Shown here piece by piece: positions 1,121 to 15,705 of a stretch of 17,604 bases of DNA (its first letter is position 1; each line of letters starts with the position of its first letter). The stretch is from a virus. Under the pieces are notes generated by a model, which saw only the letters and a program-made list of their open reading frames with translations, did not search any database and was not told the origin of the DNA. The stretch covers positions 121,970 through 139,573 of IMG/VR virus record IMGVR_UViG_3300021400_000219. One strand, 5' to 3'. Both the position numbers and the translations under genes were made by a program.

Positions 1121-1255
1121 CCGTGCGCCGGCGGTTCAAGGTGTGCCCTATTATGAGGGGTAAGCGTGTGAGCCCTTATAGCCTTAAAGGTATAAAGCTT
1201 TAAAGCTTTAAAGGTCTAGTTTTGCCCGGGCGAATTAGCGCAGGCTAACCGCAGG

Positions 1256-1292
1256 TAAAAATTAAACCCCCAGGGGTTTGGACCCCCTGGGG
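1256..1292 (-). terminator. Intrinsic terminator of the non-coding transcript
   Basis: 9-bp GC stem (CCCCAGGGG/CCCCTGGGG) followed by UUUAAUUUUU on the minus strand. Confidence 0.6.
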
Positions 1293-1586
1293 TAGGACCA
1301 TTTTTTGGCAGGTTGGTGTCCCTTCCACCTACGCTTGTTAAATAAATCCAGTAGGATACATGGTATCACCTCCATAGTATTTGAAACCACTCTTTGGCGG
1401 GCTGGCTTCTACTCCCATTCTATTACGTAAATCCAGAGTAATACATTTCTAAATCACCTCAACAATAATTTTTAATTCTTTAGTGTTTCGCTAGACGAAA
1501 CCTGTGGGGAACCTACGCATGGCCCTCTCTCCCTTCCTAGTCTATTCCGCAGGGGAGGTTTGGCGCCTTGCCCTCTCCCTTGGAAC
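1262..1586 (-). ncRNA. Candidate about 320-nt non-coding transcript bounded by a promoter and a terminator. It has a conserved leader (AUAAUUGUUCCAAGGGAGAGGG), a GTTTCG-tcta-CGAAAC tetraloop hairpin, and two tandem 7-codon mini-ORFs
   Basis: Promoter TTGACA-17-TATACT at 1593-1621 on the minus strand. Intrinsic terminator: hairpin CCCCAGGGG-N-CCCCTGGGG at 1267-1292 followed by UUUAAUUUUU. No ORF above 7 codons. Mini-ORFs MYYSGFT* and MYPTGFI* are each preceded by GAGGTGAT or GGAGGTGATACC. Confidence 0.5.
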
Positions 1587-1713
1587 AATTATAGTATAAC
1601 AGATAGGGCCGTATTTGTCAAGGGGTTTTTGAAAAAAATTTAATGGAATTTTCTGGAAGTTGCGCCCGGGCGCGTTAGCCTAAGCTAACTCCCAGATAAA
1701 GGGAAAGCGGGGA

Positions 1714-2082
1714 TTACTCCCCGCTAACCGCCTTGAAATAGGTGGTGCGCTTCTCCTGCACCTTCTCCACAGTGCCAGCCTCAACCATCTGCCGAAGCAG
1801 AGCCGAAGCCCACTGGGAGGACTTGCCAAAGTTGGCACCCACATCCTTAGCCTGCCGCAGGAGGTTGGGGTCCTCCATCAGGAAATCCAGAATCTGGACC
1901 TTGAACCCCTCGTTCTCCAGCTGCTTCTTGGAAGGCTTGCGCTCACCCTTGGAGCTGTTGCGCTTCTGGTAAGAAGCCTTGCAAGCCTCCAGCTTCTCCA
2001 CAACCTCAGCATCGAAGTTGTTGCGGGACAGGAAGTCAATGGCGGAAGTCAGAGCGTCCACATAAGTCATCTTGGTAGCCAT
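1714..2082 (-). CDS. Family A winged-helix-like DNA-binding protein, paralog 1 of 4 (122 aa)
   Basis: ORF-track frame. The C-terminal 60 aa read as helix-turn-helix plus wing (ILDFL...SQWASALLRQMVEAGTVEKVQEKRTTYFKA). An SD site (AGAAAGGA) sits 8 nt before the ATG. The TAA stop lies in the loop of the AGCGGGGA/TCCCCGCT hairpin. Two promoters lie upstream. Confidence 0.75.
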   Translation of the reverse strand: MATKMTYVDALTSAIDFLSRNNFDAEVVEKLEACKASYQKRNSSKGERKPSKKQLENEGFKVQILDFLMEDPNLLRQAKDVGANFGKSSQWASALLRQMVEAGTVEKVQEKRTTYFKAVSGE

Positions 2083-2132
2083 AGTATCAATCCTTTCTGG
2101 TTTGGGAGGTTTTCCTTCCTCTTTATGTATTT

Positions 2133-2161
2133 ATTGTATCACAGGTTTGAGGGTTTGTCAA
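2133..2161 (-). promoter_or_regulatory. Proximal promoter TTGACA-17-TGnTACAAT for family A gene 1714..2082. A distal TTGACT-17-TATACT promoter lies at 2233-2261
   Basis: Consensus hexamers and an extended -10 TG. Confidence 0.6.
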
Positions 2162-2321
2162 GACCTTTTTTTGATTTTTTTGAAAATCTTTTTTCGGCCT
2201 TGGCCGTTGTCCCTCTCCCTTGGAACAATTATAGTATAGCAGAAGGGGGGCCAAAAGTCAATTACAAAGTAGAAACAAAATGGTTACAATTTGGTTACAG
2301 GCGCCCGGGCGGAAAACTGCA

Positions 2322-2597
2322 TCAAGCGTGATGCAATTTTCCATCAACGACATAAGTTATACTTTCAAGGCCATCATACTCATCAATTTCCCAGTCGGTA
2401 CAGTTGTCAGGAAGGTCTACCATCACAAGGTTTGCGGTGTAGCCAGAAATATCTTTAGAACCATACTCGTGCATTAACATGATTAAACGCTCATCAGTGC
2501 GTTCAATCATGGCGTAAGGATGTTTCAGACCCAGCTTGTTACAAGCCATAGGAGAAAGAGAAAAACCACCATAGCATTTATTCAACACAATCTTCAT
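2322..2597 (-). CDS. Hypothetical protein (91 aa)
   Basis: ORF-track frame. GAAGGAGGT sits 8 nt before the ATG. Promoter TTGACT-17-TATATT at 2629-2657. Confidence 0.7.
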   Translation of the reverse strand: MKIVLNKCYGGFSLSPMACNKLGLKHPYAMIERTDERLIMLMHEYGSKDISGYTANLVMVDLPDNCTDWEIDEYDGLESITYVVDGKLHHA

Positions 2598-2698
2598 TTG
2601 AAGTTACCTCCTTCGTTTCTGTAATTATAATATACCACAGTATTCGCTAATAGTCAAGTTACATTTTGGTTACAGAAATGCCCGGGCGCTTCACTGCG

Positions 2699-2839
2699 CT
2701 AAAGCAGTGAAGAACGCCATTTTATTTTCCAGCAATACCAAAACTTAAAAATATTATACGGTTTTACCCCCATCAAATACGCCCCCTTTTTATGCACTTT
2801 ATACGCATCAAAAAACTTTCTTTCAATAATCTTTCTCAT
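2699..2839 (-). CDS. Small hypothetical protein (46 aa, MRKIIERKFFDAYKVHKKGAYLMGVKPYNIFKFWYCWKIKWRSSLL). Probably translationally coupled to the upstream exonuclease gene
   Basis: Not in the ORF track because it is under 60 aa. The ATG lies 4 nt after the exonuclease TAA, with AAGGGGGAA 8 nt upstream. The TAG stop sits in the loop of the CTTCACTGC/GCAGTGAAG hairpin immediately before GCCCGGGCG, which matches the cassette rule seen elsewhere. Confidence 0.4.
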   Translation of the reverse strand: MRKIIERKFFDAYKVHKKGAYLMGVKPYNIFKFWYCWKIKWRSSLL

Positions 2840-2843
2840 TTAT

Positions 2844-3536
2844 TTATTCCCCCTTTAGAGCCTTTCTATAAACCTGAACTTTACGCCAGCAATTATAAGA
2901 AATAGAATCATCAAAATCAAGGCCAGATTTAATAATTTTCATGTAAATCTGTCTTTCAATGTCCACATCTTCAAGCCCTGTATGTTCTTCAATAAAATCA
3001 GTATTATTAGTGATAAATCTATACGCAATTTCTGCGCTAGTTTGTACGTTGCCACAATCAGAAATAAATCCGTTGCGTTCTGCATAGTTAATAAAAGCGG
3101 GGGTTTTCAAAATAGAACTGCAAGCCATGTTCCAGATGCAAAAATATTCAGTATTATAAGGGAAAAACCAGCGGATAAAAGAACAAGTGATAAAACGTGC
3201 ATCATTATTTGTGGCCCGCTTGTCAAAGCCCATATTATACGCCCCTACTTTATAGGCGTTATACTCTCTCATGTCCGCCCACAAAATACGCCGAATATTT
3301 AACAGCTTTTTCAGGGTTCTTTTACCCTCTTTAATCTGCTCCCAATACTGCGGAATCTTTTCCGCAAAATAAGCGTTCTGCATCATTTCCTTATCAAGGA
3401 AAATTTCAGCCACAACGAAAGAACGCTCGACCAAAATCTCACCAGTGGTATTATCCACAATCTGGTAGCCCACATCATAGGGCAAAGGCTGTTCCACACA
3501 GTTGGCAGTCTCAGTATCAATAATCAGAATATTCAT
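2844..3536 (-). CDS. DEDDh-family (DnaQ-like) 3'-5' exonuclease (230 aa)
   Basis: Exo I motif ILIIDTETAN near the N-terminus and an H-x4-D motif (EHTGLEDVD) near the C-terminus. I set the start to the ATG at 3534-3536, which is preceded by GGGAATTGATACT. The N-terminal extension in the track is a translated promoter and leader. Promoter TTGCAA-16-TATAAT at 3592-3619. Confidence 0.65.
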   Translation of the reverse strand: MNILIIDTETANCVEQPLPYDVGYQIVDNTTGEILVERSFVVAEIFLDKEMMQNAYFAEKIPQYWEQIKEGKRTLKKLLNIRRILWADMREYNAYKVGAYNMGFDKRATNNDARFITCSFIRWFFPYNTEYFCIWNMACSSILKTPAFINYAERNGFISDCGNVQTSAEIAYRFITNNTDFIEEHTGLEDVDIERQIYMKIIKSGLDFDDSISYNCWRKVQVYRKALKGE

Positions 3537-3699
3537 AGTATCAATTCCCTTCTTTTTTTTCTTGGGGTTTCTGACCCCCTCAACAATTATTATTATAGCA
3601 GGTTTTTTGAAAATTGCAAGATGGTAAATTGCACAAAATGCGCAGGTAGTTTTTGTGCAAAATGCCGGGGCGCCCGGGCGGGAGTTAGCCGCAGCTAAC

Positions 3700-3834
3700 T
3701 CACCATGTATGCGTGTCAATGTATTCCACAAAATACCATGCAGGCATACAAAGATAATAAATACCTAACAGAAACAGGGCCGCAATAAGCTTAAAGGGAA
3801 ACAGAATATAATTTTTAATACGCTTTTTATTCAT
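3700..3834 (-). CDS. Small predicted membrane protein (44 aa, MNKKRIKNYILFPFKLIAALFLLGIYYLCMPAWYFVEYIDTHTW)
   Basis: I translated it by hand; it is under the track threshold. AAAGGA sits 9 nt before the ATG. One hydrophobic transmembrane-like segment. The TGA stop directly abuts the GTTAGCCGCAGCTAAC palindrome and GCCCGGGCG. Confidence 0.45.
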   Translation of the reverse strand: MNKKRIKNYILFPFKLIAALFLLGIYYLCMPAWYFVEYIDTHTW

Positions 3835-4282: not shown

Positions 4283-4363
4283 GATAAATTTGTTCGTCAA
4301 TTTGCACAAAAGTGGTTAGTATAGGCTAACCGCACCCGGGAGAGTTAGTGTGCGCTAACTTCC

Positions 4364-4398: not shown

Positions 4399-4761
4399 TC
4401 AAATGTCCATGGCCTTGAAGTAGGTGACACGCTTGTCAACATACTTGTCAACCATGCCGTTGAGATACAGGGTGCGGAGCAGACCGCTCACCCGCTGGCT
4501 GGTAGCATCTGCCAGCTCAGGCACCCCAGCGCAAATCTCAGAGATGCGGAAACCCTTGTCCGAATCATCCCGCAGGAAATCCAGAATCTTGGAGCGAATG
4601 GCATCGTTTTCCACCTGCTTGGCGGAAGGCTTGCGCTCAGCCGTGGACTTCTTGGCAAAGCCCTCGGCAATCTTTTCCAGCTTCTCCCGCAGGGCAGTTT
4701 CCTCAGCAGGGACGAAAGTCAGGGCCATCTCAATAGCAGTCTTATTAGTCAGCTTAGTCAT
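4399..4761 (-). CDS. Family A winged-helix-like DNA-binding protein, paralog 2 (120 aa)
   Basis: Start set to the ATG at 4759-4761, preceded by AGTGAGTGATACT; the identical context occurs at paralog 4. Promoter TTGACA-17-TATAAT at 4831-4859, with a second promoter TTGCAA-16-TATAAT at 4961-4988. A strong intrinsic terminator (GGCCCCatgtGGGGCC plus UUUUCCUUUUUCU) follows directly after the TGA. Confidence 0.75.
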   Translation of the reverse strand: MTKLTNKTAIEMALTFVPAEETALREKLEKIAEGFAKKSTAERKPSAKQVENDAIRSKILDFLRDDSDKGFRISEICAGVPELADATSQRVSGLLRTLYLNGMVDKYVDKRVTYFKAMDI

Positions 4762-5037
4762 AGTATCACTCACTTTCTCCGTTTTAACGAGTTCGGCTCT
4801 CAATCTTTTGTTTTCCTTTACTGTACTTGTATTATAGCACAGCTTGGGGAGTTTGTCAAGAGGTTTTGAAAACTTTTTTCGGATTATTTTACACCGACCA
4901 TTAACTCTCAAGGAGTGGCTCTCTTTCGCTCGCCGTCCCCAACCCCTCTTGACATTTATTATTATAGCAGATTTCTCCCAAATTGCAAGATGGGATTTTG
5001 CACAAATTAGATTAACTTCTTTTGGTTAAAATGTCAA

Positions 5038-5066
5038 TAGACAAGCGCATGTTTTTGTGATAAAAT
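5038..5066 (+). promoter_or_regulatory. Plus-strand promoter TAGACA-17-TGaTAAAAT. It fires convergently toward the 3' end of gene 5171..5458 and into GC-rich element A
   Basis: Hexamers and spacing. A TTGCACAA box sits upstream, and a divergent minus promoter (TTGCAA-16-TATAAT at 4961-4988) sits back-to-back with it. Confidence 0.45.
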
Positions 5067-5069
5067 TAG

Positions 5070-5145
5070 TGGGGGGTCTGCGCGCGGCGGCACCGGCCGT
5101 TATCGGGACGCGCGTGTGTGTGCGTGTGTCGCTTTAAAGAGCTAA
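5070..5145 (+). repeat. GC-rich element A, with alternating purine-pyrimidine runs: GCGCGCG...CCGGCCGTTA...CGCGCGTGTGTGTGCGTGTGTCGC...CTTTAAAG..CTAAAG
   Basis: One of five related copies. The others are at about 1085-1215, 10410-10480, 14045-14125 and 16950-17040. Each ends in CCCGGG or the gene-end hairpin. Confidence 0.55.
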
Positions 5146-5170
5146 AGCGCCCGGGAGAGTTAGCGAGGGC

Positions 5171-5458
5171 TTACCCCTCGCTCGTATCTACTCCCAGAAT
5201 AATCAACAGACTACAGATAGTGCCCCACGCATGGACGCCCATGTCCTCAGGGATTGCATCCCACACATCAGGATACAGACGGCGCACACCAGAGAGAAGC
5301 ATCCCGCCCCAGTTACCACCGCAAGCGGTACACAAGTCAAGGAAATCTTTAAAACTCATTTTAGTTTTCTGCGCCATGCACGCATAGACAACAACTTCAT
5401 CGCCCCACTCGTTCCGCACAGTATCAAGGGCTTCCATGAAATCAGAATGAAGAATCAT
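5171..5458 (-). CDS. Hypothetical protein (95 aa)
   Basis: Its start overlaps the stop of the upstream small basic gene (ATGA overlap at 5455-5458), with AAAGGAG 8 nt upstream. The TAA stop is in the loop of the CGAGGG/CCTCG hairpin. Confidence 0.65.
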   Translation of the reverse strand: MILHSDFMEALDTVRNEWGDEVVVYACMAQKTKMSFKDFLDLCTACGGNWGGMLLSGVRRLYPDVWDAIPEDMGVHAWGTICSLLIILGVDTSEG

Positions 5459-5601
5459 CTTGCACACTCCTTTCTCAAATCAGCTTTCAGATGGTGGCGA
5501 GCCATCCGCCGACAACTTCTCTTAATGTTTCTGTTGGAATAGGAATCAGTCCAGTAACGCCCACGGCGCAGACCCACACTCTTAGCCTTGAAGTTATTCA
5601 T
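5455..5601 (-). CDS. Small, very basic protein (48 aa, R/K-rich), possibly nucleic-acid binding
   Basis: Internal ATG of track ORF 5455..5673, preceded by AGAGGGAGGAA. Promoter TTGACA-17-TATACT at 5632-5660. First gene of a two-gene operon. Confidence 0.55.
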   Translation of the reverse strand: MNNFKAKSVGLRRGRYWTDSYSNRNIKRSCRRMARHHLKADLRKECAR

Positions 5602-5716
5602 TGCTTTGTTCCTCCCTCTTGGATTGTCTATAGTATAGCAGATAATCAGGGATTTGTCAATACTTTTGGACAAAAAAGTTTAAGGAAATATTTTCCAGGG
5701 CCCGGGCACTTGGAAA

Positions 5717-5995
5717 TTACTCCCAAGTCCCTTCCAGATAAAGCTGGATAATTCTAGTAGCCATTTTCTTGGGCTCCAGCATAGTCACGTCATCCTCATC
5801 CCAAGGGAACTGATAGGATTCAACCATTCCCTTGTCACTCCCATAGGTACCAGCATGACAAGCAACATCACCTTCATGCCAAGGGAAACGCAACTGCATC
5901 CCTTCAAAAATAGGATTAACAGTGAAAGGAACGCTTGCAAAAGTCAGGCAGGCAATCACAGCATTAATAGCATCAGTATACTTGTTAGTGAACAT
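5717..5995 (-). CDS. Hypothetical protein (92 aa)
   Basis: Start at the ATG at 5993-5995, preceded by AAAGGAGGAA. Promoter TTGACA-17-TACAAT at 6026-6054 with a short conserved leader (GACTACAGTAAAACAAAGGAGG). The TAA stop is in the loop of the ACTTGG/CCAAGT hairpin. Confidence 0.7.
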   Translation of the reverse strand: MFTNKYTDAINAVIACLTFASVPFTVNPIFEGMQLRFPWHEGDVACHAGTYGSDKGMVESYQFPWDEDDVTMLEPKKMATRIIQLYLEGTWE

Positions 5996-6025
5996 TTTTT
6001 GTTCCTCCTTTGTTTTACTGTAGTC

Positions 6026-6054
6026 ATTGTACCACATGGTAAAGCATTTGTCAA
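6026..6054 (-). promoter_or_regulatory. Promoter TTGACA-17-TGgTACAAT with an upstream UP-like element (AATTCCATTAAATTTTTTTGAAAAA)
   Basis: Hexamers and spacing. The same roughly 50-bp upstream module recurs at 1625-1665, 6583-6635, 7351-7395, 8589-8633 and 9181-9225. Confidence 0.65.
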
Positions 6055-6115
6055 TAGGTTTTTCAAAAAAATTTAATGGAATTTTTTTCCAGTTACCCGG
6101 GCGTGTGCTGGAAAT

Positions 6116-6295
6116 TTATTCCAGCACTTCCACCTCTTCCCAATCCCAAAACTCTTCATTAGGATTCCAGAATGTGGCAAAATCATCACATTCATCAATG
6201 GCAGAAACTCCCAGTTTACAGCGTCCATCCTTTTCCCAGTAGGGACAATCCCAGCCGTTGACAGTGCAGTAAATAACCATTCTTTTTTCTTTCAT
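6116..6295 (-). CDS. Small Cys-rich acidic protein (59 aa, C-x6-C-x8-C-x9-C), possibly metal-binding
   Basis: Under the track threshold. Its ATG overlaps the TGA of gene 6292..6504 as an ATGA overlap. GGAAAGTGATACA sits before the ATG. The TAA stop is in the loop of the GCTGGAA/TTCCAGC hairpin next to CCCGGGCG. Confidence 0.5.
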   Translation of the reverse strand: MKEKRMVIYCTVNGWDCPYWEKDGRCKLGVSAIDECDDFATFWNPNEEFWDWEEVEVLE

Positions 6296-6504
6296 TGTAT
6301 CACTTTCCTTTCTTCAAGTTCACAATCTTCACGAGTCATTAGATAATCAAACTCTTTCAAGCACTCATAGTTTCCCGCAAGCGCATACTCTACAATATCT
6401 CTTGCAGTAGTCCAAGCAATGTAGTTTTCAGCATCGCAATGGTCAATCCTTGCATCAAAGATGTGGCGCAGGGTATCCACAATTTCAGACGAGATAATAT
6501 ACAC
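6292..6504 (-). CDS. Hypothetical protein (70 aa, GTG start)
   Basis: ORF-track frame. GGAAGGTGATACATT precedes the GTG. Promoter TTGACA-17-TATACT at 6554-6582 with the conserved leader UUGUUCCAAGGGAAGG. Confidence 0.55.
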   Translation of the reverse strand: MYIISSEIVDTLRHIFDARIDHCDAENYIAWTTARDIVEYALAGNYECLKEFDYLMTREDCELEERKVIQ

Positions 6505-6647
6505 AATGTATCACCTTCCTATTGGATTTGTTTCCTTCCCTTGGAACAACTATAGTATAGCACAGCAGAGGGTCTTTGTCAATACTAAATTGAAAAAAAT
6601 TTGATGGAATTTTTGGAAATGTTTTCCAGTGCCCGGGTGATGGTGAC

Positions 6648-6827
6648 TTAGTCACCATCCCTTTCTTCAAATTCACATACAGGACAAATAAAATCTCTAA
6701 AGTCTTCCTCTTCCCAATCAGATTCATAGATAGGCTCGCCGCACTCGGGACAATTATAAAATCGTTCATCCCAATTTACGAAACCGCCGAATACATTTTC
6801 AACAATCTTTGCATTCAGTTCCCACAT
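6648..6827 (-). CDS. Small zinc-ribbon-like acidic protein (59 aa, CPEC...CPVC, D/E-rich C-terminus)
   Basis: Internal ATG of track ORF 6648..6908, preceded by AAGGAGGT with 7 nt spacing. That SD site overlaps the stop of the upstream 34-aa peptide gene. The TAA stop is in the loop of the GGTGAC/GTCACC hairpin. Confidence 0.6.
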   Translation of the reverse strand: MWELNAKIVENVFGGFVNWDERFYNCPECGEPIYESDWEEEDFRDFICPVCEFEERDGD

Positions 6828-6840
6828 GGAATTTACCTCC

Positions 6841-6945
6841 TTACCAACCAAAAATCCGAGAGAGTATAACAAGTATTGCATCAAATACAGCTCCAATACC
6901 AATGGCACCCATAATCATCCAAAATAAAACATCCATGTCTTTCAT
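6841..6945 (-). CDS. Tiny hydrophobic membrane peptide (34 aa, MKDMDVLFWMIMGAIGIGAVFDAILVILSRIFGW)
   Basis: Hand translation. GAGGGAGGT sits 6 nt before the ATG. Promoter TTGACT-16-TATACT at 6975-7002 sits immediately upstream with no other ORF available. Single transmembrane segment. Confidence 0.45.
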   Translation of the reverse strand: MKDMDVLFWMIMGAIGIGAVFDAILVILSRIFGW

Positions 6946-7041
6946 GTTATTACCTCCCTCATTTCTGTAATTATAGTATACCACAAATTATCCAAAAGTC
7001 AAGTTACAATTTGGTTACAAACACCCGGGCGCGAAGGTGAC

Positions 7042-7281
7042 TTAGTCACCCTCATTCGTCTTCATTGGAAACAGGTCGTCCAGATTGGTAACACCTGGAA
7101 TAAATTCAGTAATAAAAGAAAAAGGTCTTGCTTCTGCCAATTCTACGTTGTCAATGTCCCACACATCATCAAAGGCTTCTTCGCACGGCGGGCGTAATCC
7201 CTTCCAAAATTTGGTTTCTGCTTCCTCTGCGGTTTCCGCTTCAATCATGCAATAACCAGAAAAATCAATGTACCATTTCAT
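7042..7281 (-). CDS. Small highly acidic protein (79 aa), candidate DNA-mimic or anti-defence protein
   Basis: ORF-track frame. AAAGGAG sits 9 nt before the ATG. Promoter TTGACA-17-TATACT at 7322-7350. The TAA stop is in the loop of the same GGTGAC-tta-GTCACC hairpin used by 6648..6827. Confidence 0.7.
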   Translation of the reverse strand: MKWYIDFSGYCMIEAETAEEAETKFWKGLRPPCEEAFDDVWDIDNVELAEARPFSFITEFIPGVTNLDDLFPMKTNEGD

Positions 7282-7321
7282 TAGATGATACTCCTTTCAT
7301 TTCTTTTCTTAGGTTGAGTAT

Positions 7322-7350
7322 AGTATAACACTTCACAGGGCATTTGTCAA
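7322..7350 (-). promoter_or_regulatory. Promoter TTGACA-17-TGtTATACT for acidic gene 7042..7281
   Basis: Consensus hexamers and an extended -10. Confidence 0.65.
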
Positions 7351-7439
7351 TAGAAAATTGAAAAAAATTTAATGGAATTTATTCCCATTTACCCGGGCGC
7401 GTTAGCTGCTGCTAACTCTGGAAGAAAAAGGAAGGGGGA

Positions 7440-7805
7440 TTACTCCCCCTTCACCTGGAAGCGGCTGACCCGCTTCTCCACAACCTTCTCCACGGTTCCA
7501 GCTTCTACCAGCTGGCGCAGAAGGGCGGAAGCCTGCTGGCTGGAAGAGAGTTCCAGTTCGGCGGCTACTTCCTTCGCCTGCATAGGCTCGTGGTCAGTCA
7601 GCAGTTCAACGATGCGGGCCTTGATACCCTCGTTTTCAATCTGCTTCTTGGTGGGCTTGCGCTCGCCCTTGGACTTGGAAGCGTTCCGCTTCTCATAGCT
7701 GGCCTTGCAAGCAACCAGCTTTTCCATGGCTTCCTCGTTGAAGTCAGCGGGCAGGGAAGCAATAGCCATTTCCAGAGCCTTCACATAAGTCATCTTGTTA
7801 GTCAT
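7440..7805 (-). CDS. Family A winged-helix-like DNA-binding protein, paralog 3 (121 aa)
   Basis: Start set to the ATG at 7803-7805 (GGTAGTGCATACT context). The C-terminus (...VEKRVSRFQVKGE) parallels paralog 1. The stop is in the loop of the AAGGGGGA/TCCCCCTT hairpin. Two tandem promoters at 7880-7908 and 8019-8047. Confidence 0.75.
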   Translation of the reverse strand: MTNKMTYVKALEMAIASLPADFNEEAMEKLVACKASYEKRNASKSKGERKPTKKQIENEGIKARIVELLTDHEPMQAKEVAAELELSSSQQASALLRQLVEAGTVEKVVEKRVSRFQVKGE

Positions 7806-8117
7806 AGTATGCACTACCTTTCTCTGTTTTAACGAGTTCAGCTCTCAATCTGTTTTGTTCTTTCCCTTACTGTGGCTTTATTATACCACAGGTTCAGGGG
7901 TTTGTCAAGAGTTTTTTTGAATTTCTCTTGATTTTTTTGGAGCCATTTTTTAGGTGGGCTACTTCCAACACCCGACTGTTGGCGGTTTTTTAGGTGCGCT
8001 CCCTCACCCGACATCATTATATTACCACAGGTTGCTCCATTTGTCAAGGGTTTTTTCAAAAGTTTTTTCTGGAATTTCTACCAAGATTTTCCAGCGACCC
8101 GGGCGAGTTAGCGGGGG

Positions 8118-8495: not shown

Positions 8496-8649
8496 TATTC
8501 ATTCTCCATTCATTTTTTATTGATTGGGGTTTACCTTCGTTCCCCTCAACCTTGATTATAGTATAGCAGATAGGAATGGATTTGTCAATACCTTTTTTCA
8601 AATTTTTTAATGGAATTTTTTTCCAGTTGCCCGGGCGCAGGAGTTAGCA

Positions 8650-9119: not shown

Positions 9120-9261
9120 TTTAATTACCTCCTGGTTCATTTCTTGAGTATAGTATAACAGATGGGAGAGGATTTGTCAATACCTTTTTTAGAAAAATTT
9201 ACTGGAAATGTTTTCCAAGTGCCCGGGCGGCGCTTTAGCGCACTGAAGCGCTAAAGCATCC

Positions 9262-9615
9262 TCACTTTCTGGGGGCTGATAATACTACTTTGTATTTAGT
9301 ATTTTCAAACGTAAAAATAAACTCTCTTTCTACGTTGGTTATTTCTAACGCTTCCCCGCCATTTTCATTTATTGCGGTTGTGAGAATATCCATTATTGCG
9401 CGTTTTGCGTTGTTTGCTTTACGTTCCTTTTTGGGGAATTTATAAGCGGATACTTTGCGGTCAGCTTGACGCATTTTTTTTGCTACTTTCTGTTGTTCAG
9501 AATTTAACTCAAAAAGTTTTGCCCCGTGGTCTATTGCATCATCATCAGCTAATACTTGTTTAGCTTCTTCCTCTGTCAAATCTAATACCTGCATTAAATG
9601 TTCGATTCTCTCCAT
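9262..9615 (-). CDS. Family B protein, paralog 2 (117 aa). Co-transcribed with the family A gene upstream
   Basis: AAAGGGGGT sits 8 nt before the ATG. There is no promoter or terminator between it and 9645..10019. The TGA stop is followed by the GCTTTAGCGC/GCGCTAAAGC hairpin. Confidence 0.75.
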   Translation of the reverse strand: MERIEHLMQVLDLTEEEAKQVLADDDAIDHGAKLFELNSEQQKVAKKMRQADRKVSAYKFPKKERKANNAKRAIMDILTTAINENGGEALEITNVEREFIFTFENTKYKVVLSAPRK

Positions 9616-9644
9616 TTTTATTTACCCCCTTTTTGGGGAGGGGG

Positions 9645-10019
9645 TTAAACCCCCTCACCCATGGCCTTGAAATAAGTAATGCGCTTATCTACGTACTTAT
9701 CTACCATTCCGTTCAGGTAGAGCGTCCGCAGAAGTCCGCTCACCCTCTGGGAAGTCGCATCGTTCAGAGCGGGAACACCTGCGCAGATTTCAGAGATACG
9801 GAAACCTCTGTCCACATCTTCCCGCAGGAAATCCAGAATTTCCGCACGGACGGCGTCGTTCTCTGCCTGCTTTGCGCTAGGCTTGCGGGGAGCGGTGTTC
9901 TTCTTAATGGCCTGTTCCTTCATCTTCTCCAGCTTTTCCACAACATCCGTCATGTCAGCGGGAACGTAGGACAGAGCAACTTCCAGAGCCTTAACAGTAG
10001 TCATCTTATTGGTAGCCAT
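9645..10019 (-). CDS. Family A winged-helix-like DNA-binding protein, paralog 4 (124 aa)
   Basis: Start at the ATG at 10017-10019 (AGTGAGTGATACT context). It is almost identical to paralog 2 over the C-terminal 70 aa. The TAA stop is in the loop of the GGGGAGGGGG/CCCCCTCACCC hairpin. Tandem promoters at 10073-10101 and 10225-10253. Confidence 0.75.
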   Translation of the reverse strand: MATNKMTTVKALEVALSYVPADMTDVVEKLEKMKEQAIKKNTAPRKPSAKQAENDAVRAEILDFLREDVDRGFRISEICAGVPALNDATSQRVSGLLRTLYLNGMVDKYVDKRITYFKAMGEGV

Positions 10020-10072
10020 AGTATCACTCACTTTCTCTGTTTGTGGGGTTTATCAGCTCCCCTTGATGTATT

Positions 10073-10101
10073 AAGTATAGCACAGGTTGAAGGGTTTGTC
10101 A
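10073..10101 (-). promoter_or_regulatory. Proximal promoter TTGACA-17-TGcTATACT for family A gene 9645..10019. A distal promoter TTGACA-17-TATATT lies at 10225-10253
   Basis: Consensus hexamers. Tandem double promoters are seen before all four family A genes. Confidence 0.6.
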
Positions 10102-10629
10102 AGAGTTTTTTGCAGTTTTTCTGATTTTTTTTGTGAGAACCACGAATGGAAAAAACTCTCAAAAAATTATCGTTTGAAACTCTGTCCCTAGGGCTTTGGG
10201 GCCCCTTGCCCTTTGGACAAGTATAATATAACACATTGGGGCGCGTTTGTCAATACTGATTTGAAAATTTGGGGGCATTCTCTGTTTTGCACAATTTTGA
10301 TGCAAAAATTGCGTCATTTTTGTGCATTTTGACGGCGCGCCCGGGTGAACTACCAATTTCAGGAAAAGCTGGGGTCAAGAGAGAACAAGGAAATTCATTG
10401 AAAAATTTGGTAACGATTTCCAGCGCGCGACACCGGAACCCCTGGGCCGTGTGCGTGTGCGACGGGTGCACGCAGTATTTATTTATACAAGCGGAACTAA
10501 TAGAAAAATCAATTTAAAATATTTATACATATTTATTTATTATTAAGGGTACCGGCGCAATTCTCAAATCAAAAACCTTCCAGGTCTATTTACTTCTGGA
10601 AAATGAAATAAAAATAGGGGCTGATTTAT

Positions 10630-10731
10630 TTTCAAAAATGAGATGAAAAAACGAGAGTATTTCTTTCGTAGATTCAAAGGAAACAATTTCGTTTTTCAAT
10701 CCAAAAATCATAAGGAAACACTCTCGTTTTT
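10630..10731 (-). terminator. Large hairpin terminator (12-bp stem AAAAACGAGAGU/ACUCUCGUUUUU with a roughly 60-nt loop), followed by a second terminator at 10566-10601
   Basis: Perfect 12-bp inverted repeat at 10647-10658 and 10720-10731, followed on the minus strand by UCAUCUCAUUUUUG. The second hairpin, UUCCAG-N12-CUGGAA, is followed by GGUUUUUGAUUUG. Confidence 0.5.
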
Positions 10732-10735
10732 CAAT

Positions 10736-10888
10736 TCAGAAATCTTCAATTTTTTTATTTTTTTCTTTGGCTCGATTATACTCTGAACCTTTGCCCTTTT
10801 TATTAGCTATTCTTTTGGACCTTTTCCGCAGAGTATTTAAACCATCACCATCAGTCTTTTTAATTTCTTTAACGGTTTTTTCATCCAT
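10736..10888 (-). CDS. Small lysine-rich basic protein (50 aa, MDEKTVKEIKKTDGDGLNTLRKRSKRIANKKGKGSEYNRAKEKNKKIEDF)
   Basis: Hand translation; under the track threshold. GGGAGGT sits 9 nt before the ATG, which lies just after the TAA of HAD gene 1. Its TGA stop is immediately followed by a large terminator hairpin at 10647-10731 and a second terminator. Confidence 0.45.
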   Translation of the reverse strand: MDEKTVKEIKKTDGDGLNTLRKRSKRIANKKGKGSEYNRAKEKNKKIEDF

Positions 10889-10891
10889 TTA

Positions 10892-11341
10892 TTAAAGACC
10901 TCCCAGAACTTCAAGAATATTATTTACATCATAGGCATTTCCGCCTGCATTATTCCATTCAATTCTATTTCTTTCTTCATCATCAAACAGGATGCCGATT
11001 TCATTTACTACGGTACTTTTGGGGGTGCCATAGGAAACAATTTTCACATCATCAAAATGGACGCTTGCCAGATGTTTTTTTAACCACATCTTTTTTGCTT
11101 CTGTTACAACCTTGTTGTAATCGGGGTTATCTTCCTTAGAGAGCCAAGAGACAACACCAATTTTCCATCCAAGGGCCTGTAACTTGTTCAGCTTGTGGGC
11201 CAGCGCAGAAAGCCGAATCAGGGGTTTTGCGATTTCATAGGGAAGGGGATTTCTCTCAATTAGATAGGAGAGCCAATTTTCCACGCCATACAGATCGGCA
11301 ATAGTCCCATCCATGTCGAAATAAATAGCCTTGTTCATCAT
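10892..11341 (-). CDS. HAD-superfamily hydrolase, 5'(3')-nucleotidase-like, paralog 1 (149 aa)
   Basis: Motif I (IYFDMDGTIADL) and motif IV (GILFDDEE). Start set to the ATG at 11339-11341, downstream of promoter TTGACT-17-TATTAT at 11390-11418. The 30-aa N-terminal extension in the track is translated leader. Confidence 0.7.
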   Translation of the reverse strand: MMNKAIYFDMDGTIADLYGVENWLSYLIERNPLPYEIAKPLIRLSALAHKLNKLQALGWKIGVVSWLSKEDNPDYNKVVTEAKKMWLKKHLASVHFDDVKIVSYGTPKSTVVNEIGILFDDEERNRIEWNNAGGNAYDVNNILEVLGGL

Positions 11342-11485
11342 TCTGACCAACCCTTTCTTTAAAAGGTTTTTTATCTTTTCTGTATTATTATAATACCAAA
11401 TTTTTTTATAAAAGTCAATAGGGAATCGCAAATTTTAGAAGTTTGTGCAATTTGCACAAAAGCGCCCGGGCGAGTTACCCTGTGC

Positions 11486-11725
11486 TTACAAGGTAACTTT
11501 GCACTGTCTAAAATCATGCCACAGATGGGGCTGAGTCAGCGGAGACCGCAGGGAATAAGCTTGGTATTGCAAGAAAGATAAAATGCGGATTTCTGTTATT
11601 GTAGTTTCATCATCTAAATCAAACTTTTTATTTATTACAGAGCCGTGCAATCTGCCAGGGGTTTTTGCAAAAACTTTAGTAGTAAAACCAAACGGGTCCA
11701 TAATCTTAATCTCATAATAATTCAT
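11486..11725 (-). CDS. Hypothetical protein (79 aa). Second gene of an operon. Its 3' extent is uncertain
   Basis: ATG at 11723-11725, preceded by AAAGGAGAA 9 nt upstream. The C-terminal third reads through a hairpin-rich region, so the gene may be shorter than annotated. Confidence 0.45.
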   Translation of the reverse strand: MNYYEIKIMDPFGFTTKVFAKTPGRLHGSVINKKFDLDDETTITEIRILSFLQYQAYSLRSPLTQPHLWHDFRQCKVTL

Positions 11726-11927: not shown

Positions 11928-12046
11928 TGAAGTTACCTCCTTATTCATTTCGTACCCTTATTATAAGCGATGTTTTGCGATTTGTCAAGGGGTTTATGCG
12001 ATTTTTCTTCTGGAATTTTTTGGTTATGGCGCCCGGGTGGCTGGCC

Positions 12047-12490
12047 TTACCCGATATGGGCGGCCAGCCAAGCCAGCATCTTTTTGCTTTCTTTAGCGCA
12101 CCGGATTTTCATCCCGCCGCCGTTCTTCTGGCTTTCCCGCTCGGTCTTGCAGAACTCGGTGCAGAAGGCGGTGAACTCGTCCCGGTTCATCATATAGACC
12201 TGATAATCGGCGGTAACGTAGGCCCAGAGGTTGCTGTGGGTGCGCTCCATATAGAGGGCCCAGATTTCATCATAAGTTTCCCGGCCTTCGCACAGGGTGG
12301 CGCTCATAAGGGTGAAGGCAGAAGCCTTGACGGAGATGAGCATTTCACCAAGCTCGATATCAGAGCCTTTGTCATATGCACCGCTATCATGGGTGGTGCG
12401 GTCGATGCCCATATAGTGGCACAGATCGTGCTCACGGGCAATGCCCTTATTAGTAGCGGGGGAAACGTGGTCAATCTTGAAGGTCTTCAT
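12047..12490 (-). CDS. Hypothetical protein (147 aa)
   Basis: Start at the ATG at 12488-12490, preceded by AGGAAAGGGAG. Promoter TTGACT-17-TATACT at 12522-12550. The TAA stop is in the loop of the GGCTGGCC/GGCCAGCC hairpin. The overlapping plus ORF 11927..12523 is rejected. Confidence 0.65.
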   Translation of the reverse strand: MKTFKIDHVSPATNKGIAREHDLCHYMGIDRTTHDSGAYDKGSDIELGEMLISVKASAFTLMSATLCEGRETYDEIWALYMERTHSNLWAYVTADYQVYMMNRDEFTAFCTEFCKTERESQKNGGGMKIRCAKESKKMLAWLAAHIG

Positions 12491-12726
12491 CTGAAGCACT
12501 CCCTTTCCTTAGGATGGTTATAGTATAGCACCATTCCCCGGGATAGTCAATACAAAATCGCAAATTTCCCCTTGTGCAAATTATACAAATGTTGGAGCGG
12601 ATTTTTGGGGGCTGTTGTGCAAGTTGCACAATTAGTGTAACCTGGGTCACATTAAAAGTAACAAAAGAGTTACAATCTCTAACAATCAATTACAATCTTT
12701 TTTTTACTTTCAAAACACTTTTTTTA

Positions 12727-12911
12727 AGTTAGCAGTTAGCAAAGGGTAATGCTAGTTAGCACAAGCTAATTGTTGTTAGTTCGAACTAACTCCGGTTAGC
12801 AGGGACTAACTGGAGTTAGCCTAGGCTAACTTTAGCACACTAAAGCTGTAGCGATTTAGCGAACTAAAGTGCGCCGGACCTGGCAATTTGAACAATTAGC
12901 GGCTGCTAACT
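12727..12911. repeat. Array of eight short palindromes of the GTTAGC-N4-6-GCTAAC or TTTAG-N4-CTAAA type
   Basis: Read directly from the sequence: AGTTAGCAGTTAGCA, TTAGCacaaGCTAA, GTTAGTTCGAACTAAC, GGTTAGcagggaCTAAC, AGTTAGCCTAGGCTAACT, CTTTAGcacaCTAAAG, TTTAGcgaaCTAAA, TTAGCggctGCTAA. The same palindrome type sits at nearly every gene junction. Confidence 0.7.
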
Positions 12912-13169
12912 TTGTGCATTTTGACGAGGTTTCGGGATTCGTCAAGTTGCACAAAAATGTAACCAAATTGTAACCAAAATTTGTGCAATTTGACGGTGGC
13001 GCGAACTCGGCTGCCAACGACTGCGCTGGGCCACAGTGCACTCGTTGGCGGCCGGTTCGTCATTTTGCACAAATGCGTGCGTGCGAGGGGCCTTAACTTT
13101 ATGCATTATGACGAAAAAAAATTTTTGTGCAAAATGACGAATCAAATCCTGATTCGTCAAAATGCACAA

Positions 13170-13463
13170 AAAAAGAGGCATTGCCCGGCCTCATCGGGGG
13201 GAAGCTTGACGCCCTTCCCTGGCGGTGGTGTCCACTTTCGGGGACACGCCCGGCTCCGTTTGCTAGCCGCAGGAGCGTCGCGGCGCTGGGGTCGTTCCCT
13301 TGCCCCTTGGGGAACTTGATGGCCTCCATTTCTATCCCGCGGCCTTGGGGGCGGCCTAGCTACTTTGTGGGGAGTATCGCCCACGTTTCGCCGACGCGGC
13401 TGGGATTTTGGTGTCATCGCGCATCCCGTGCGCTCAAGAGGGACAAGTCAACCTCTTTTCTAT
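13170..13463 (-). ncRNA. Candidate GC-rich structured non-coding RNA of about 290 nt
   Basis: Promoter TTGACA-17-TATAAT at 13470-13498 on the minus strand. Intrinsic terminator GAGGC-N8-GCCUC followed by U7, at 13167-13192 in plus coordinates. GC content is far above the window average. There is no SD site and no conserved ORF. It contains a GTGTCCCC-GAAA-GTGGACAC tetraloop hairpin and a GUGGGCGAUACUCCCCAC hairpin. Confidence 0.45.
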
Positions 13464-13699: not shown

Positions 13700-13759
13700 G
13701 GAAGTGACCTCCTTTGTTTTACTGTAATCATTATAGCAGACCCGCCCGGGTTTGTCAAC

Positions 13760-14007: not shown

Positions 14008-14037
14008 TTGACAGCCGAGCCTATTTTGTGGTATAAT
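14008..14037 (+). promoter_or_regulatory. Plus-strand promoter TTGACA-18-TGgTATAAT, transcribing into GC-rich element B
   Basis: Near-consensus hexamers. The conserved upstream sequence GCATTTTTACTCTTGACA is shared with the promoter at 16916. Confidence 0.55.
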
Positions 14038-14138
14038 ATTTCTGTACTGCCTGCGCGCGCGGTCGCCGGCCGTTAGCGGGGGCTAACTGTGCCTGGGTGT
14101 GCGCCTTTATTGCAATAAAGCACTAAAGTGCACAAGGG

Positions 14139-14171: not shown

Positions 14172-14290
14172 TCAATGGCGATGACCTTCCAGCCCTTGGG
14201 CGGTTCGTAGTTTTCCGGCAGGCCCTTCCAGAGAATCAATTCAGTATCGGCCCACTCTCCATCAATCTTTCTGATTTCAATGCTCCACAT
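14159..14290 (-). CDS. Small hypothetical protein (43 aa)
   Basis: Internal ATG of track ORF 14159..14383. Promoter TTGACA-17-TATAAT at 14343-14371 and a leader of the AAUCAGAAAGAGGGAAGGAAAACC type. The TAA stop is in the loop of terminator ACGAGGAU/AUCCUCGU, followed by UUUUUUG. Confidence 0.5.
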   Translation of the reverse strand: MWSIEIRKIDGEWADTELILWKGLPENYEPPKGWKVIAIDYED

Positions 14291-14385
14291 AATCTTTTTT
14301 CCTTTCTGGTTTGTTAGGTTTTCCTTCCCTCTTTCTGATTGTATTATAGCAGACTCAACCGGGTTTGTCAACCCCTTTTTCAAAT

Positions 14386-14529
14386 TTATTTAATTCTTTT
14401 TACTTTGATAACCTTAGCCCCAGAGTATTCAGCTTTTCCCTCTTTCAGAAATTTGCGGTTAGGATTGACAAGGGTGATGGTAGATTCTTCGCCGCAAAGG
14501 CTGATGGTAATTTCATAAATCTTTTTCAT
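14386..14529 (-). CDS. Small hypothetical protein (47 aa)
   Basis: Hand translation. Promoter TTGACA-17-TATAAT at 14563-14591 has no other ORF downstream of it. GGAAAGGAAA sits before the ATG. Confidence 0.4.
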   Translation of the reverse strand: MKKIYEITISLCGEESTITLVNPNRKFLKEGKAEYSGAKVIKVKRIK

Positions 14530-14609
14530 TTTTTTTCATTTCCTTTCCTTTTTTCTGTCTTTATTATAGCATCGGCCGGGCGATTTGTCAACCCCTTTTT
14601 TGAAATTTT

Positions 14610-14756
14610 TTAGGGAAATTTATCTCTCCCTAAAAAACAATCCCGCATAAATTCCAACTGTTCCAGAGAAAAGCGGGCCGCAAATTGTGCGGGCGTCTCT
14701 TCAAAGAGATGGTATCCGTTGGCAACCATTTCCATTACAACTTCCAGCTTTTTCAT
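14610..14756 (-). CDS. Small hypothetical protein (48 aa)
   Basis: Internal ATG, preceded by AAAGGAGGAA. Promoter TTGACA-16-TATAAT at 14787-14814. The N-terminal WYNKGTKTKEE in the track is a translated -10 element and leader. Confidence 0.55.
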   Translation of the reverse strand: MKKLEVVMEMVANGYHLFEETPAQFAARFSLEQLEFMRDCFLGRDKFP

Positions 14757-15022
14757 TTTGTGTTCCTCCTTTGTTTTTGTACCTTTATTATACCATACTT
14801 TTGGCAAATGTCAAGACCTTTTTTCAATTTTCTTTTGGTCTTTGCGGGTCCGACCCCCGCACCCTCTGAAGGGCTGTTGTCGGCTTGGAGGTCCTTCCTA
14901 CTGGGACCCCGTCCTTGATTATTATTATAGCAGATAATAGCCAAAAGTCAATTACAAAATGGTTACAATTTTATTTCAGAATGGTTACAATTTGCGCCCG
15001 GGCAAATGGGAAAAAGAGGGAA

Positions 15023-15487
15023 TTACTTCCCTCTCGCCCATGTCAGAACGTCCATAATCATTTCAGGATTGAAGGCCCAACCTTCCATTTCTTCCCACTC
15101 AATCACATTGTTTTCTTCATCGTCAAACAGAATCCCATTTTTCACGGTGGGCACTGTGCTTTTGGGCGTCCCATAGGGAACAATGTTGATTTCATCAAAG
15201 TGAACGCTTGCAAGGTGTTTCTTGAGCCAATTCTTTTTGGCTTCAATAACCTTTTCGTCAAATTCCTTGTTGCTATTCTTAGCTAACCAACTAACTACCC
15301 CGATTGTCCATCCCTTTTTCTGAAGGTTATTCAACCGACGGGCAAGGGCGTTCATGTTTACCAGAGGCTTAGCAACTTCATAGGGGAAGGGATTGTTTTC
15401 CAGTAGATAACCCAGCCAGTTTTCTACGCCGTAGAAGTTGGCGATTGTTCCATCCATGTCAAAGTAGATTGCCCGATTGATTTTCAT
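15023..15487 (-). CDS. HAD-superfamily hydrolase, 5'(3')-nucleotidase-like, paralog 2 (154 aa)
   Basis: IYFDMDGTIANF and GILFDDEE motifs. AAAAGGAG sits 9 nt before the ATG. Promoter TTGACA-16-TATACT at 15519-15546. The TAA stop is in the loop of the GAGGGAA/TTCCCTC hairpin. Confidence 0.75.
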   Translation of the reverse strand: MKINRAIYFDMDGTIANFYGVENWLGYLLENNPFPYEVAKPLVNMNALARRLNNLQKKGWTIGVVSWLAKNSNKEFDEKVIEAKKNWLKKHLASVHFDEINIVPYGTPKSTVPTVKNGILFDDEENNVIEWEEMEGWAFNPEMIMDVLTWARGK

Positions 15488-15590
15488 TTTGTTCAGCTCC
15501 TTTTCTTTTTCTGATTATAGTATACCACAAATTCCGGGATTGTCAAGAGTTTTTTTCAAAAAAATCAAAAAACTTTTTTCAAAAAACCTC

Positions 15591-15619
15591 TTGACAAATT
15601 GAAAAAACTGTGATACAAT
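15591..15619 (+). promoter_or_regulatory. Plus-strand promoter TTGACA-17-TGtGATACAAT, whose transcript starts AAAGGGGGAAUUA followed by U19
   Basis: It sits back-to-back with the minus promoter of HAD gene 2 (15519-15546). The two -35 regions form an inverted repeat, CCTCTTGACAAATT. Confidence 0.55.
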
Positions 15620-15632
15620 AAAGGGGGAATTA

Positions 15633-15651
15633 TTTTTTTTTTTTTTTTTTT
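15633..15651 (+). repeat. Homopolymeric T19 tract at +15 of a plus-strand transcript
   Basis: Counted directly. A second tract, T26, lies at 17475-17500 in the same context. There are also T13 at 13511-13523 and T-runs at 13766-13790. Confidence 0.8.
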
Positions 15652-15705
15652 GGTTAGCTTAGGCTAACTTAGGTTAGTATGTGCTAACTACCCGGGCGCA
15701 AGAAA

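Follow-up and report, generated by a model that had tools for sequence, protein, structure and literature searches.

The 17,604-nt stretch of viral DNA analysed here (positions 121,970 to 139,573 of IMG/VR record IMGVR_UViG_3300021400_000219; hereafter the window) carries an array of about 30 self-contained minus-strand cassettes, and we find that a short GC-only palindrome, R-CCCGGG-Y, is a selected, clade-wide and strand-symmetric mark of the boundaries between them, and that cassettes are joined at it. The array holds about 35 small genes in 17.6 kb, few of them with family matches, and each cassette includes its own sigma-70-type promoter, a ribosome-binding site and one or two small genes. 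In reverse complement, the window corresponds to part of a 174,221-bp scaffold from a sheep-rumen metagenome, to which it is 100% identical over 13.5 kb and whose gene content was covered over 38 kb of about 174 kb; all data are metagenomic. Megablast of the window against deposited phages gave no nucleotide match, and the only tblastn matches of one flanking protein (L040 18486-19829) were in Bacillus phage G and a faecal phage, with identities of about 31%. An original prediction, made from the letters of the window, held that a GC-only repeat recurs at terminator-promoter junctions and is either a protein recognition site, for a site-specific recombinase, a nicking or homing enzyme or a transcription factor, or a junction scar of cassette insertion; as a whole, its observation was partly confirmed and its interpretation is partly supported.

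Form, placement and conservation of the motif

CCCGGG occurs 22 times in the window, against 3.42 +/- 1.85 copies expected from dinucleotide shuffles, a 6.4-fold enrichment over a composition-matched background; the highest count in a shuffled window was 9, and none of 200 reached 22. The motif was found at every one of the 20 coordinates given in the original prediction, which had missed two further copies, at 12537 and 13745. The 20 lie at hairpin-to-promoter junctions, as had been proposed, and the other two in promoter spacers. The relaxed copy announced near 16124 reads CCGGGCG and also occupies a junction position (Table 1). That the core is almost always embedded in GCCCGGGCG was an overstatement: this exact 9-mer is present on at least one strand at 9 of the 22 sites, the palindromic octamer GCCCGGGC at 10, and the consensus R-CCCGGG-Y fits 20, while the GC-only core is common to all 22. 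Coding constraints do not explain the motif, as the prediction had also stated, the 35 called minus-strand genes (9,495 of 17,604 nt) containing none of the 22 copies (probability under uniform placement 4e-8). The assumed background of roughly 40% GC was appropriate: in 1-kb steps the window ranges from 30 to 54% and mostly lies at about 35-50%. The adjoining phage DNA has 31-34% GC, and at this composition the absence of the motif from the scaffold flanks of the array (9.7 kb and 7.1 kb) compares with only about 0.15 copies expected in each. The motif is not part of one long duplicated segment, and its conservation does not depend on the repeated promoter segments that come after some copies: in the window it is followed by at least three element types and preceded by many different hairpins, and in other phages it is retained between unrelated flanks.

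CCCGGG is the SmaI/XmaI site and GCCCGGGC the SrfI site, and an unbroken GC palindrome of 6-8 bp that coincides with known Type II sites could be a restriction-modification or methylation target without a role in cassette structure. The genome does respond to restriction pressure elsewhere, GATC being scarce both in the window (3 copies, 40 expected; 0.07 of expectation) and in its flanks (9 copies, 81 expected), which suggests GATC-specific host restriction; avoidance of CCGG, a sign of MspI-like activity, was not seen. Such sites are, however, normally depleted in phages, whereas CCCGGG is enriched sixfold rather than avoided and is held at one architectural position, and no methyltransferase partner was found in 38 kb of scaffold. 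This explanation can hardly be the right one.

Read along transcription, a junction comprises the gene end, a hairpin, 1-4 nt, the palindrome as (c)G-CCCGGG-C(g), an optional operator-like element, an A/T-rich tract, TTGACAAAT, 17 nt, TATAmT, AGGAGG and the next gene. The composite order by which promoter-early stem-loops (PeSLs), the mobile regulatory cassettes of T4-type phages (PMC2839356, PMC4122927), are recognised was found at 20 junctions, here as hairpin, motif, A/T-rich tract, TTGACA-N17-TATAmT and AGGAGG. Within it the motif is tied to the hairpin and not to the promoter: at 12 of 16 oriented window sites the 3' end of the hairpin is 1-4 nt away from CCCGGG, and at 73 of 147 sites in other phages it is 0-5 nt away, compared with about 8% at random positions, whereas the motif stands 21-86 nt from the -35 box in the window and 3-89 nt from it elsewhere, a spread that excludes a fixed-phase promoter element. 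The hairpins vary in sequence, GTTAGC-N4-GCTAAC being a recurrent form. Because no T-run follows them on the transcribed strand, the motif-adjacent hairpins do not look like canonical intrinsic terminators; the few canonical terminators in the array are separate structures. At 14 of the 20 junctions the stop codon lies 9-21 nt from the motif, and at 12 of these it is inside the hairpin, often as the TAA of a GTAA loop. Since the plus-strand units that converge on the motif copies at 1225, 5150 and 15691 also end in hairpin and then motif, the palindrome serves both directions. The operator-like elements, present between motif and -35 box at most junctions (for example 8597-8628, 2262-2302 and 11419-11463), are of three kinds: a TGGAA-N5-TTCCA inverted repeat, a GTAAC-N6-GTAAC direct repeat, and TGTGCA/TGCACA palindromes.

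An element acting in RNA, in which hairpin and CGCCCGGGCG together form the 3' end of the message or a signal for processing, stability or factor-dependent termination, would account for the position of both shortly after so many stop codons, for the missing U-run and for the closure of plus-strand units by the same arrangement. It would not account for conservation that is strand-symmetric, a property without obvious use in RNA, nor for the promoter-spacer copies, which are not transcribed within a 3' end; in addition, a GC-rich hybrid right after a hairpin opposes intrinsic termination. Rfam returned no family match at gathering thresholds, and at E <= 1 gave two chance-level matches, neither at a motif. 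We consider a role in RNA very unlikely.

Beyond the window, searches by pattern and by protein yielded dozens of uncultured viral contigs, 15-240 kb long, with motif arrays, and a motif scan of genome contigs returned five true arrays, all in Clostridia-binned metagenome contigs, and five chance matches in high-GC Actinobacteria. In the viral and the Clostridia-binned contigs alike, GCCCGGGC occurs at 0.5-1.7 per kb in the same architectural position, among hairpins, operators, promoters and genes unlike those found in the window. The binning of related contigs, with the style of promoters and ribosome-binding sites, suggests a Firmicutes host. Among 261 unique sites with unrelated flanks, taken from diverged uncultured phage and Clostridia-binned contigs, 74% are GCCCGGGC. 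Conservation is strand-symmetric, and in the promoter-oriented set the two flanks mirror each other over the three bases next to the hexamer: the first base out is G upstream (89%) and C downstream (86%), the second is C upstream (50%) and G downstream (56%), and the third is not A upstream and not T downstream. Site by site, the bases of the two flanks complement each other no more often than the column frequencies predict, which excludes selection on the palindrome for base pairing and points to two half-sites that are read independently. Between close relatives, changes affect 3 of 222 positions of the central hexamer and 88 of 1850 positions of the flanks (p = 0.015), and the outer R/Y positions flip readily. 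The distribution of the motif also has edges. In four loci (L064-L067) the first 7-11 kb are motif-free and about one copy per kb follows, and from five loci that share array core genes at 28-30% GC (L033-L036, L038) the motif is absent altogether. A further locus, L032, carries CCCGGG and besides it (4474-11415) a non-palindromic CCGGGCGC junction, always in one orientation, between terminator and promoter and bracketed by AATATATT-type inverted repeats. A literature search for the octamer found only cloning primers, and a keyword search on phage cassette repeats found nothing new.

Cassette joins at the motif

Eleven contigs, which come from different samples and do not have the same cassette content, encode a 230-aa array protein of identical sequence. 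When genomes were split at CCCGGG, most inter-motif segments proved to be kept whole, at 92-100% identity. Locus L043 lacks exactly window positions 2310-2686 (the 91-aa cassette) and exactly 7030-7397 (the 79-aa cassette), with one motif copy left at each join. An independent lineage provides a third case, a 1.3-kb cassette that L004 and L053 carry and L009 lacks, the join lying at gcgCCCGGGc. In these three precise indels the left flank runs to '...gCCCGGG' and the right flank from 'CCCGGGc...', with no other shared sequence. At six more sites (L039, L042) the left and right flanks are of different origin and the switch falls at the motif. Of 37 non-redundant high-identity block ends, 7 lie within 6 nt of a motif, where 0.83 were expected (P = 1.7e-5 relative to all positions, P = 1.9e-3 relative to non-coding positions only). 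The 79-aa cassette occupies different places in three relatives; in L043 the 79-aa gene, together with its hairpin, a decayed CCCGGA and a promoter, is lodged between two other genes. Compared across relatives of different cassette content, then, whole cassettes are present or absent and the join is exactly at the motif, and the proposal that the repeat is a cassette junction draws direct support from the exact indels and from block ends that gather at the motif far above chance.

Such joins could arise passively, with no protein reader. As a self-complementary repeat, and the longest perfect GC-rich one in A/T-rich intergenic DNA, the motif would favour replication slippage or template switching, hairpin and motif-motif pairing would bring the cassette ends together, and the motif would persist as cassettes spread between co-infecting phages. 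The precise indels keep one copy of a short direct repeat, a hairpin directly beside that repeat is near-ideal for slippage, the half-sites vary independently and their outer R/Y positions change fast, small modules are ~90% identical between phages whose genes are ~65% identical, and for T4-type phages short homology is considered sufficient for the exchange of PeSLs (PMC2839356), all of which accords with this idea. Yet the same octamer is found across lineages with differing promoters, operators and GC content, in contrast to PeSL stems, which differ between T4 subgroups (PMC4122927); the central hexamer is more constrained than its flanks; and spacer copies 1-7 nt after the -35 box, concentrated on one gene family, are left unexplained. 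We regard a purely passive process as rather unlikely and infer that recombination at the motif is enzymatic.

The cassettes share with PeSLs a stem-loop directly upstream of a strong sigma-70-type early promoter and ribosome-binding site, the repetition of this element between small ORFans in a hyperplastic region, transcriptional self-containment, and indels and replacements between close relatives that map to the elements. They differ in the discrete GC-only palindrome between stem-loop and promoter, which is the sole part conserved across distant lineages; in several joins that lie inside this palindrome, whereas mapped PeSL crossovers lie in A/T-rich or -10/Shine-Dalgarno parts; in hairpins that have no U-runs and often hold the stop codon; and in the phages themselves, which are unrelated to T4 by the searches described above. 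PeSL stem-loops are effective transcription terminators, and recombination between flanking PeSLs gives rise to mini-circles of the excised cassette. What is new relative to PeSLs is the other phage lineage and the discrete palindrome as conserved element and join point. For T4 itself, deletions in the hyperplastic region have been described (Mosig et al. 1998, as related in PMC2839356). In that account they removed small non-essential ORFs, about half of 13 involved GGGC, this was sometimes paired with GCCC as an inverted repeat, and a sequence-specific protein starting targeted recombination was proposed. GCCCGGGC is GCCC abutting GGGC; as far as that account goes, though, the T4 motif is not a regular mark at every cassette boundary.

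Integrons, too, are arrays of co-oriented small cassettes with a structured and variable end site, a short conserved crossover core, and precise gain and loss. The resemblance is one of functional analogy only. The gene tables for 38 kb of scaffold contain no integrase, and neither attI nor a common promoter was found there; each cassette here has its own promoter; and the core, RCCCGGGY, is palindromic and outside the hairpin, whereas attC has GTTRRRY within the folded site.

Promoter-spacer copies and a candidate reader

The two spacer copies of the window lie between the -35 and -10 boxes, 2-3 nt after the former. Of the 664 promoter-like sites in all related loci, 58 contain CCGGG or CCCGG within the spacer, where 7.6 were expected, and these are concentrated 1-7 nt after the -35 box; among loci devoid of GCCCGGGC (L032-L034, L037), none of 98 promoter-like sites has such a copy. 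A protein bound at this position would block RNA polymerase. The earlier proposal of a protein recognition site is plausible rather than demonstrated: the symmetry of the motif, its conservation across diverged phages with unrelated flanks, the fixed place of the spacer copies, and the copy in the promoter of a nuclease-like gene described below suggest that a protein reads it.

This protein could be a regulator and nothing else. A dimeric regulator of phage or host would then shut off the promoters with spacer copies and insulate neighbouring cassettes, and the recombination joins would be a by-product, the motif being the upstream edge of a conserved promoter module. Cluster A mycobacteriophage stoperators and IncP KorB operators are sites of this sort, with 12 to 30 intergenic copies at variable promoter distances and one regulator. 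An operator or insulator is consistent with the fixed-position spacer copies and their absence from the examined loci without GCCCGGGC, with symmetric conservation, with paralogous promoter modules that start right at the motif, and with variable promoter distances, which long-range regulators such as KorB tolerate. It is at odds with junction copies that stay close to the upstream hairpin (0-5 nt) and lie at varying distances from the promoter (3-89 nt), with the copies at 1225, 5150 and 15691, which end convergent plus-strand units and have no promoter following, with the many promoters in the first part of the array that have no junction copy, and with three precise motif-to-motif indels that involve no shared promoter homology. 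Stoperators, moreover, are asymmetric and oriented with transcription, whereas the motif is symmetric; KorB sites are 13-bp TTTAGCSGCTAAA sequences with a ParB-family reader; and neither kind of site marks recombination joins, unlike the motif. No regulator of the stoperator or KorB type was found here. An exclusively regulatory function is conceivable, and we would not expect it.

ORF clustering of motif-bearing loci gave five gene families conserved in arrays: the 230-aa protein, which has only weak, sub-threshold similarity to exonuclease families, a multi-copy winged-helix family, two NT5C-like 5'-nucleotidases, a 116-aa family and a 147-aa family. Winged-helix proteins had been put forward as binders of the motif, a suggestion that found no support, since none of 35 promoters of this family has a spacer copy; nor does any of 16 promoters of the 230-aa family or 13 of the 116-aa family. 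In the 147-aa family, by contrast, a spacer copy is present in the promoters of 12 of 20 diverged orthologues (p = 3e-8; 6 of 12 in the strict promoter set). An alignment-based locus search for this family recovered 7 loci. Its residues E20, D44, K55 (within S-V-K) and E105 are invariant, and the AlphaFold2 model (pLDDT 94.5) has a restriction-endonuclease-like fold, the best structural neighbours being Type IIP enzymes that read GC-only palindromes (HhaI 7.3; NhoI 6.4; HinP1I 6.0; further neighbours I-Ssp6803I 5.6, Eco15I 5.2 and ThaI 5.1). Contigs that encode the protein have 9-28 copies of GCCCGGGC per 16-20 kb, mostly downstream of the gene, which in the window opens the motif-dense part of the array. 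We tentatively name the 147-aa nuclease-like protein as the best candidate reader, a proposal about which we remain doubtful. The I-TevI endonuclease reportedly represses itself, binding its recognition sequence where a copy of this overlaps the I-TevI promoter; the spacer copies of the 147-aa gene offer a parallel at the level of sequence, although I-TevI is a GIY-YIG enzyme with a single genomic target.

Taken together, these results lead us to lean, if only slightly, towards PeSL-like mobile cassettes with the motif as boundary and exchange point, read by a symmetric phage protein for which the 147-aa protein is the leading candidate. R-CCCGGG-Y, mostly GCCCGGGC, would mark the boundaries of hyperplastic early-gene cassettes, and these would be excised, inserted or replaced by the joining of two motif copies, with one copy left behind. 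The symmetric protein, possibly the restriction-endonuclease-like product of 12047-12490, would read the motif as double-stranded DNA; at junctions it would nick, cut beside the hairpin or otherwise start recombination, and at promoter-spacer copies it would repress. A more specific form of the idea, an integrase-free, integron-like system in which the nuclease-fold protein reads GCCCGGGC, starts excision and insertion of cassettes and represses itself through the copy in its own promoter, strikes us as unlikely.

Several observations weigh against the reading that we favour. Because many block ends fall elsewhere, especially at the edge between promoter and ribosome-binding site, the motif is one of at least two preferred boundaries. 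The ~100-nt promoter module can be 100% identical between genomes whose flanks differ on both sides, and ordinary homologous recombination within such a shared module leaves an equally sharp switch at the motif; a crossover in the motif itself is required only by the three precise motif-to-motif indels. Some junctions come from metagenome assemblies, in which identical 100-nt modules could create chimeras, an unlikely origin for the main junctions because these recur in independent assemblies. The lineage of L032 has the non-palindromic CCGGGCGC at the junction position, and 38 kb of scaffold contain no recombinase or methyltransferase. The link to the nuclease is circumstantial: Foldseek of the 147-aa protein against PDB gave nothing significant, a profile search of the family against PDB sequences gave a chance match only, and the protein has no Pfam or PADLOC match. 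Two loci (L062, L063) encode a 64%-identical orthologue and have few motif copies, spacer copies also occur in promoters of other genes, and an enzyme able to cleave its own genome at about 20 sites would have to be restrained, or the sites protected.

Other features of the array and wider meaning

The motif copies of the window, the two motif-to-motif cassettes and the gene of the candidate reader are listed in Table 1.

Table 1. Positions of motif copies, motif-bounded cassettes and the nuclease-like gene in the window.
Feature	Position	Strand	Surroundings
Junction GCCCGGGC	1224..1231		minus-strand hairpin TTAGC-CTGC-GCTAA; plus-strand GC-rich unit ends there
Junction GCCCGGGC	1664..1671		hairpin 1672-1691, gap 1 nt; -35 box at 1621, 43 nt downstream
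Junction GCCCGGGC	2303..2310		hairpin 2311-2342 holds stop codon of gene 2322-2597; lower-coordinate (transcriptionally downstream) edge of 91-aa cassette missing in L043
Junction GCCCGGGC	2680..2687		hairpin 2689-2712; higher-coordinate (transcriptionally upstream) edge of 91-aa cassette missing in L043
Junction GCCCGGGC	3672..3679		hairpin 3680-3703, GTTAGC-N4-GCTAAC type
Junction ACCCGGGA	4334..4341		hairpin 4343-4360, after canonical terminator of winged-helix gene 4399-4761
Junction GCCCGGGA	5149..5156		hairpins abut both sides; minus-strand gene and plus-strand GC-rich unit converge
Junction GCCCGGGC	5700..5707		hairpin 5708-5728, stop codon in loop
Junction ACCCGGGC	6095..6102		hairpin 6105-6127
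Junction GCCCGGGT	6631..6638		hairpin 6639-6659, TAA in loop
Junction ACCCGGGC	7023..7030		hairpin 7033-7053; one edge of 79-aa cassette
Junction ACCCGGGC	7391..7398		hairpin 7399-7418; other edge of 79-aa cassette
Junction ACCCGGGC	8097..8104		adjoins hairpin GCGGGG-TTAA-CCCCGC
Junction GCCCGGGC	8629..8636		hairpin 8640-8661 (GGAGTTAGC-TAAT-GCTAACTCC), stop codon in loop
Junction GCCCGGGC	9221..9228		hairpin 9232-9257
Junction GCCCGGGT	10339..10346		edge of long non-coding stretch; promoter 86 nt downstream
Junction GCCCGGGC	11464..11471		hairpin 11473-11498
Junction GCCCGGGT	12031..12038		9 nt past stop codon of 147-aa nuclease-like gene
Promoter-spacer copy	12536..12543		TTGACTAT-CCCGGG-GAATGGTGCTATACT; promoter of 147-aa nuclease-like gene; absent from the original prediction
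Promoter-spacer copy	13744..13751		TTGACAAA-CCCGGG-CGGGTCTGCTATAAT; absent from the original prediction
Junction GCCCGGGC	14996..15003		hairpin 15015-15034
Junction ACCCGGGC	15690..15697		between two plus-strand GTTAGC-type hairpins and minus-strand hairpin 15704-15723
Relaxed copy CCGGGCG	16123..16129		junction position
147-aa restriction-endonuclease-like gene	12047..12490	-	
Motif-to-motif cassette: promoter, 91-aa gene, hairpin	2310..2686	-	exact unit missing in L043
Motif-to-motif cassette, 79-aa gene	7030..7397	-	missing at that place in L043

The two NT5C-like genes (window 10892-11341 and 15023-15487), the 230-aa gene (2844-3536) and the 147-aa gene (12047-12490) form a co-conserved set in these arrays, which recalls the host-DNA-degradation functions of the pre-early genes of phage T5. 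A 125-aa ORF at 8118-8495 matches the T5orf172 domain weakly and below threshold (E = 0.019) and is possibly another small nuclease of the array. The winged-helix family, found in 17 lineages, is represented by four paralogous genes of ~122 aa (1714-2082, 4399-4761, 7440-7805 and 9645-10019) with weak MarR/TrmB-like matches; a canonical terminator follows three of them (1714, 4399, 7440), and tandem promoters precede those at 1714 and 4399. Between the tandem promoters of a winged-helix gene lies a transcribed leader of ~100 nt (window 4850-4956, minus strand; L001 11072-11178, minus strand; L031 8840-8948, plus strand), which is 89-92% identical across three phages whose genes are about 65% identical and has no Rfam match. 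Its 5' GTCAAGRGG pairs with CCYCTTGAC overlapping the -35 box of the proximal promoter, one pair showing a compensatory change. Just outside the window, a gene for 204-207 aa (L040 14518-15132) has faint matches to helix-turn-helix families of the Crp/MarR type only.

Strong plus-strand (antisense) promoters drive a repeated GC-rich unit of ~100 nt at ~1040-1220, 5038-5148, 14008-14130, 16916-17040 and 10400-10470, with the pattern GCGCGCG..GGCCGTTAGCGG..GCTAAC..GTGTGCGTGTGCGC..CTTTAnAGC..TAAAG; two of the units end at a CCCGGG copy, and the units may be small RNAs. At 15591-15650 and 17433-17500, plus-strand promoters (TTGACA/TTGACT, then TGTGATACAAT) are followed by GAAGGGGGA and an unbroken run of at least 19 T. 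Long non-coding stretches (12560-13450, 380-1220 and L049 7000-8600) are densely packed with GTTAGC-N4-GCTAAC and CTTTAGC..GCTAAAG palindromes and TTTGTGCAAAATGACGA repeats, and look like clustered protein-binding sites or an origin. A scan of the window for tRNA and tmRNA found none. Most genes in the flanking DNA (L049 1-7000, L040 13794-18383) contain 2-13 in-frame TAG codons each and end in TAA or TGA, whereas the array genes contain no in-frame TAG and stop at TAA, TGA and TAG; on this basis TAG appears to be recoded in the non-early genes of the phage.

The gain and loss of the small early genes by which phages decide host takeover and counter-defence is poorly understood, PeSLs being the main documented case, and whether a dedicated protein drives PeSL exchange has been an open question since 2010. 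In the phages described here the exchange point is narrowed to one 8-bp palindrome, common to many rumen and gut Clostridia phages, and the array itself encodes a candidate reader. In metagenomic phage contigs the motif offers a means of marking off cassettes automatically and of tracing how accessory genes move from phage to phage. If the integrase-free, integron-like mechanism were true, a clade of large uncultured rumen and gut phages would run a cassette system of this kind.

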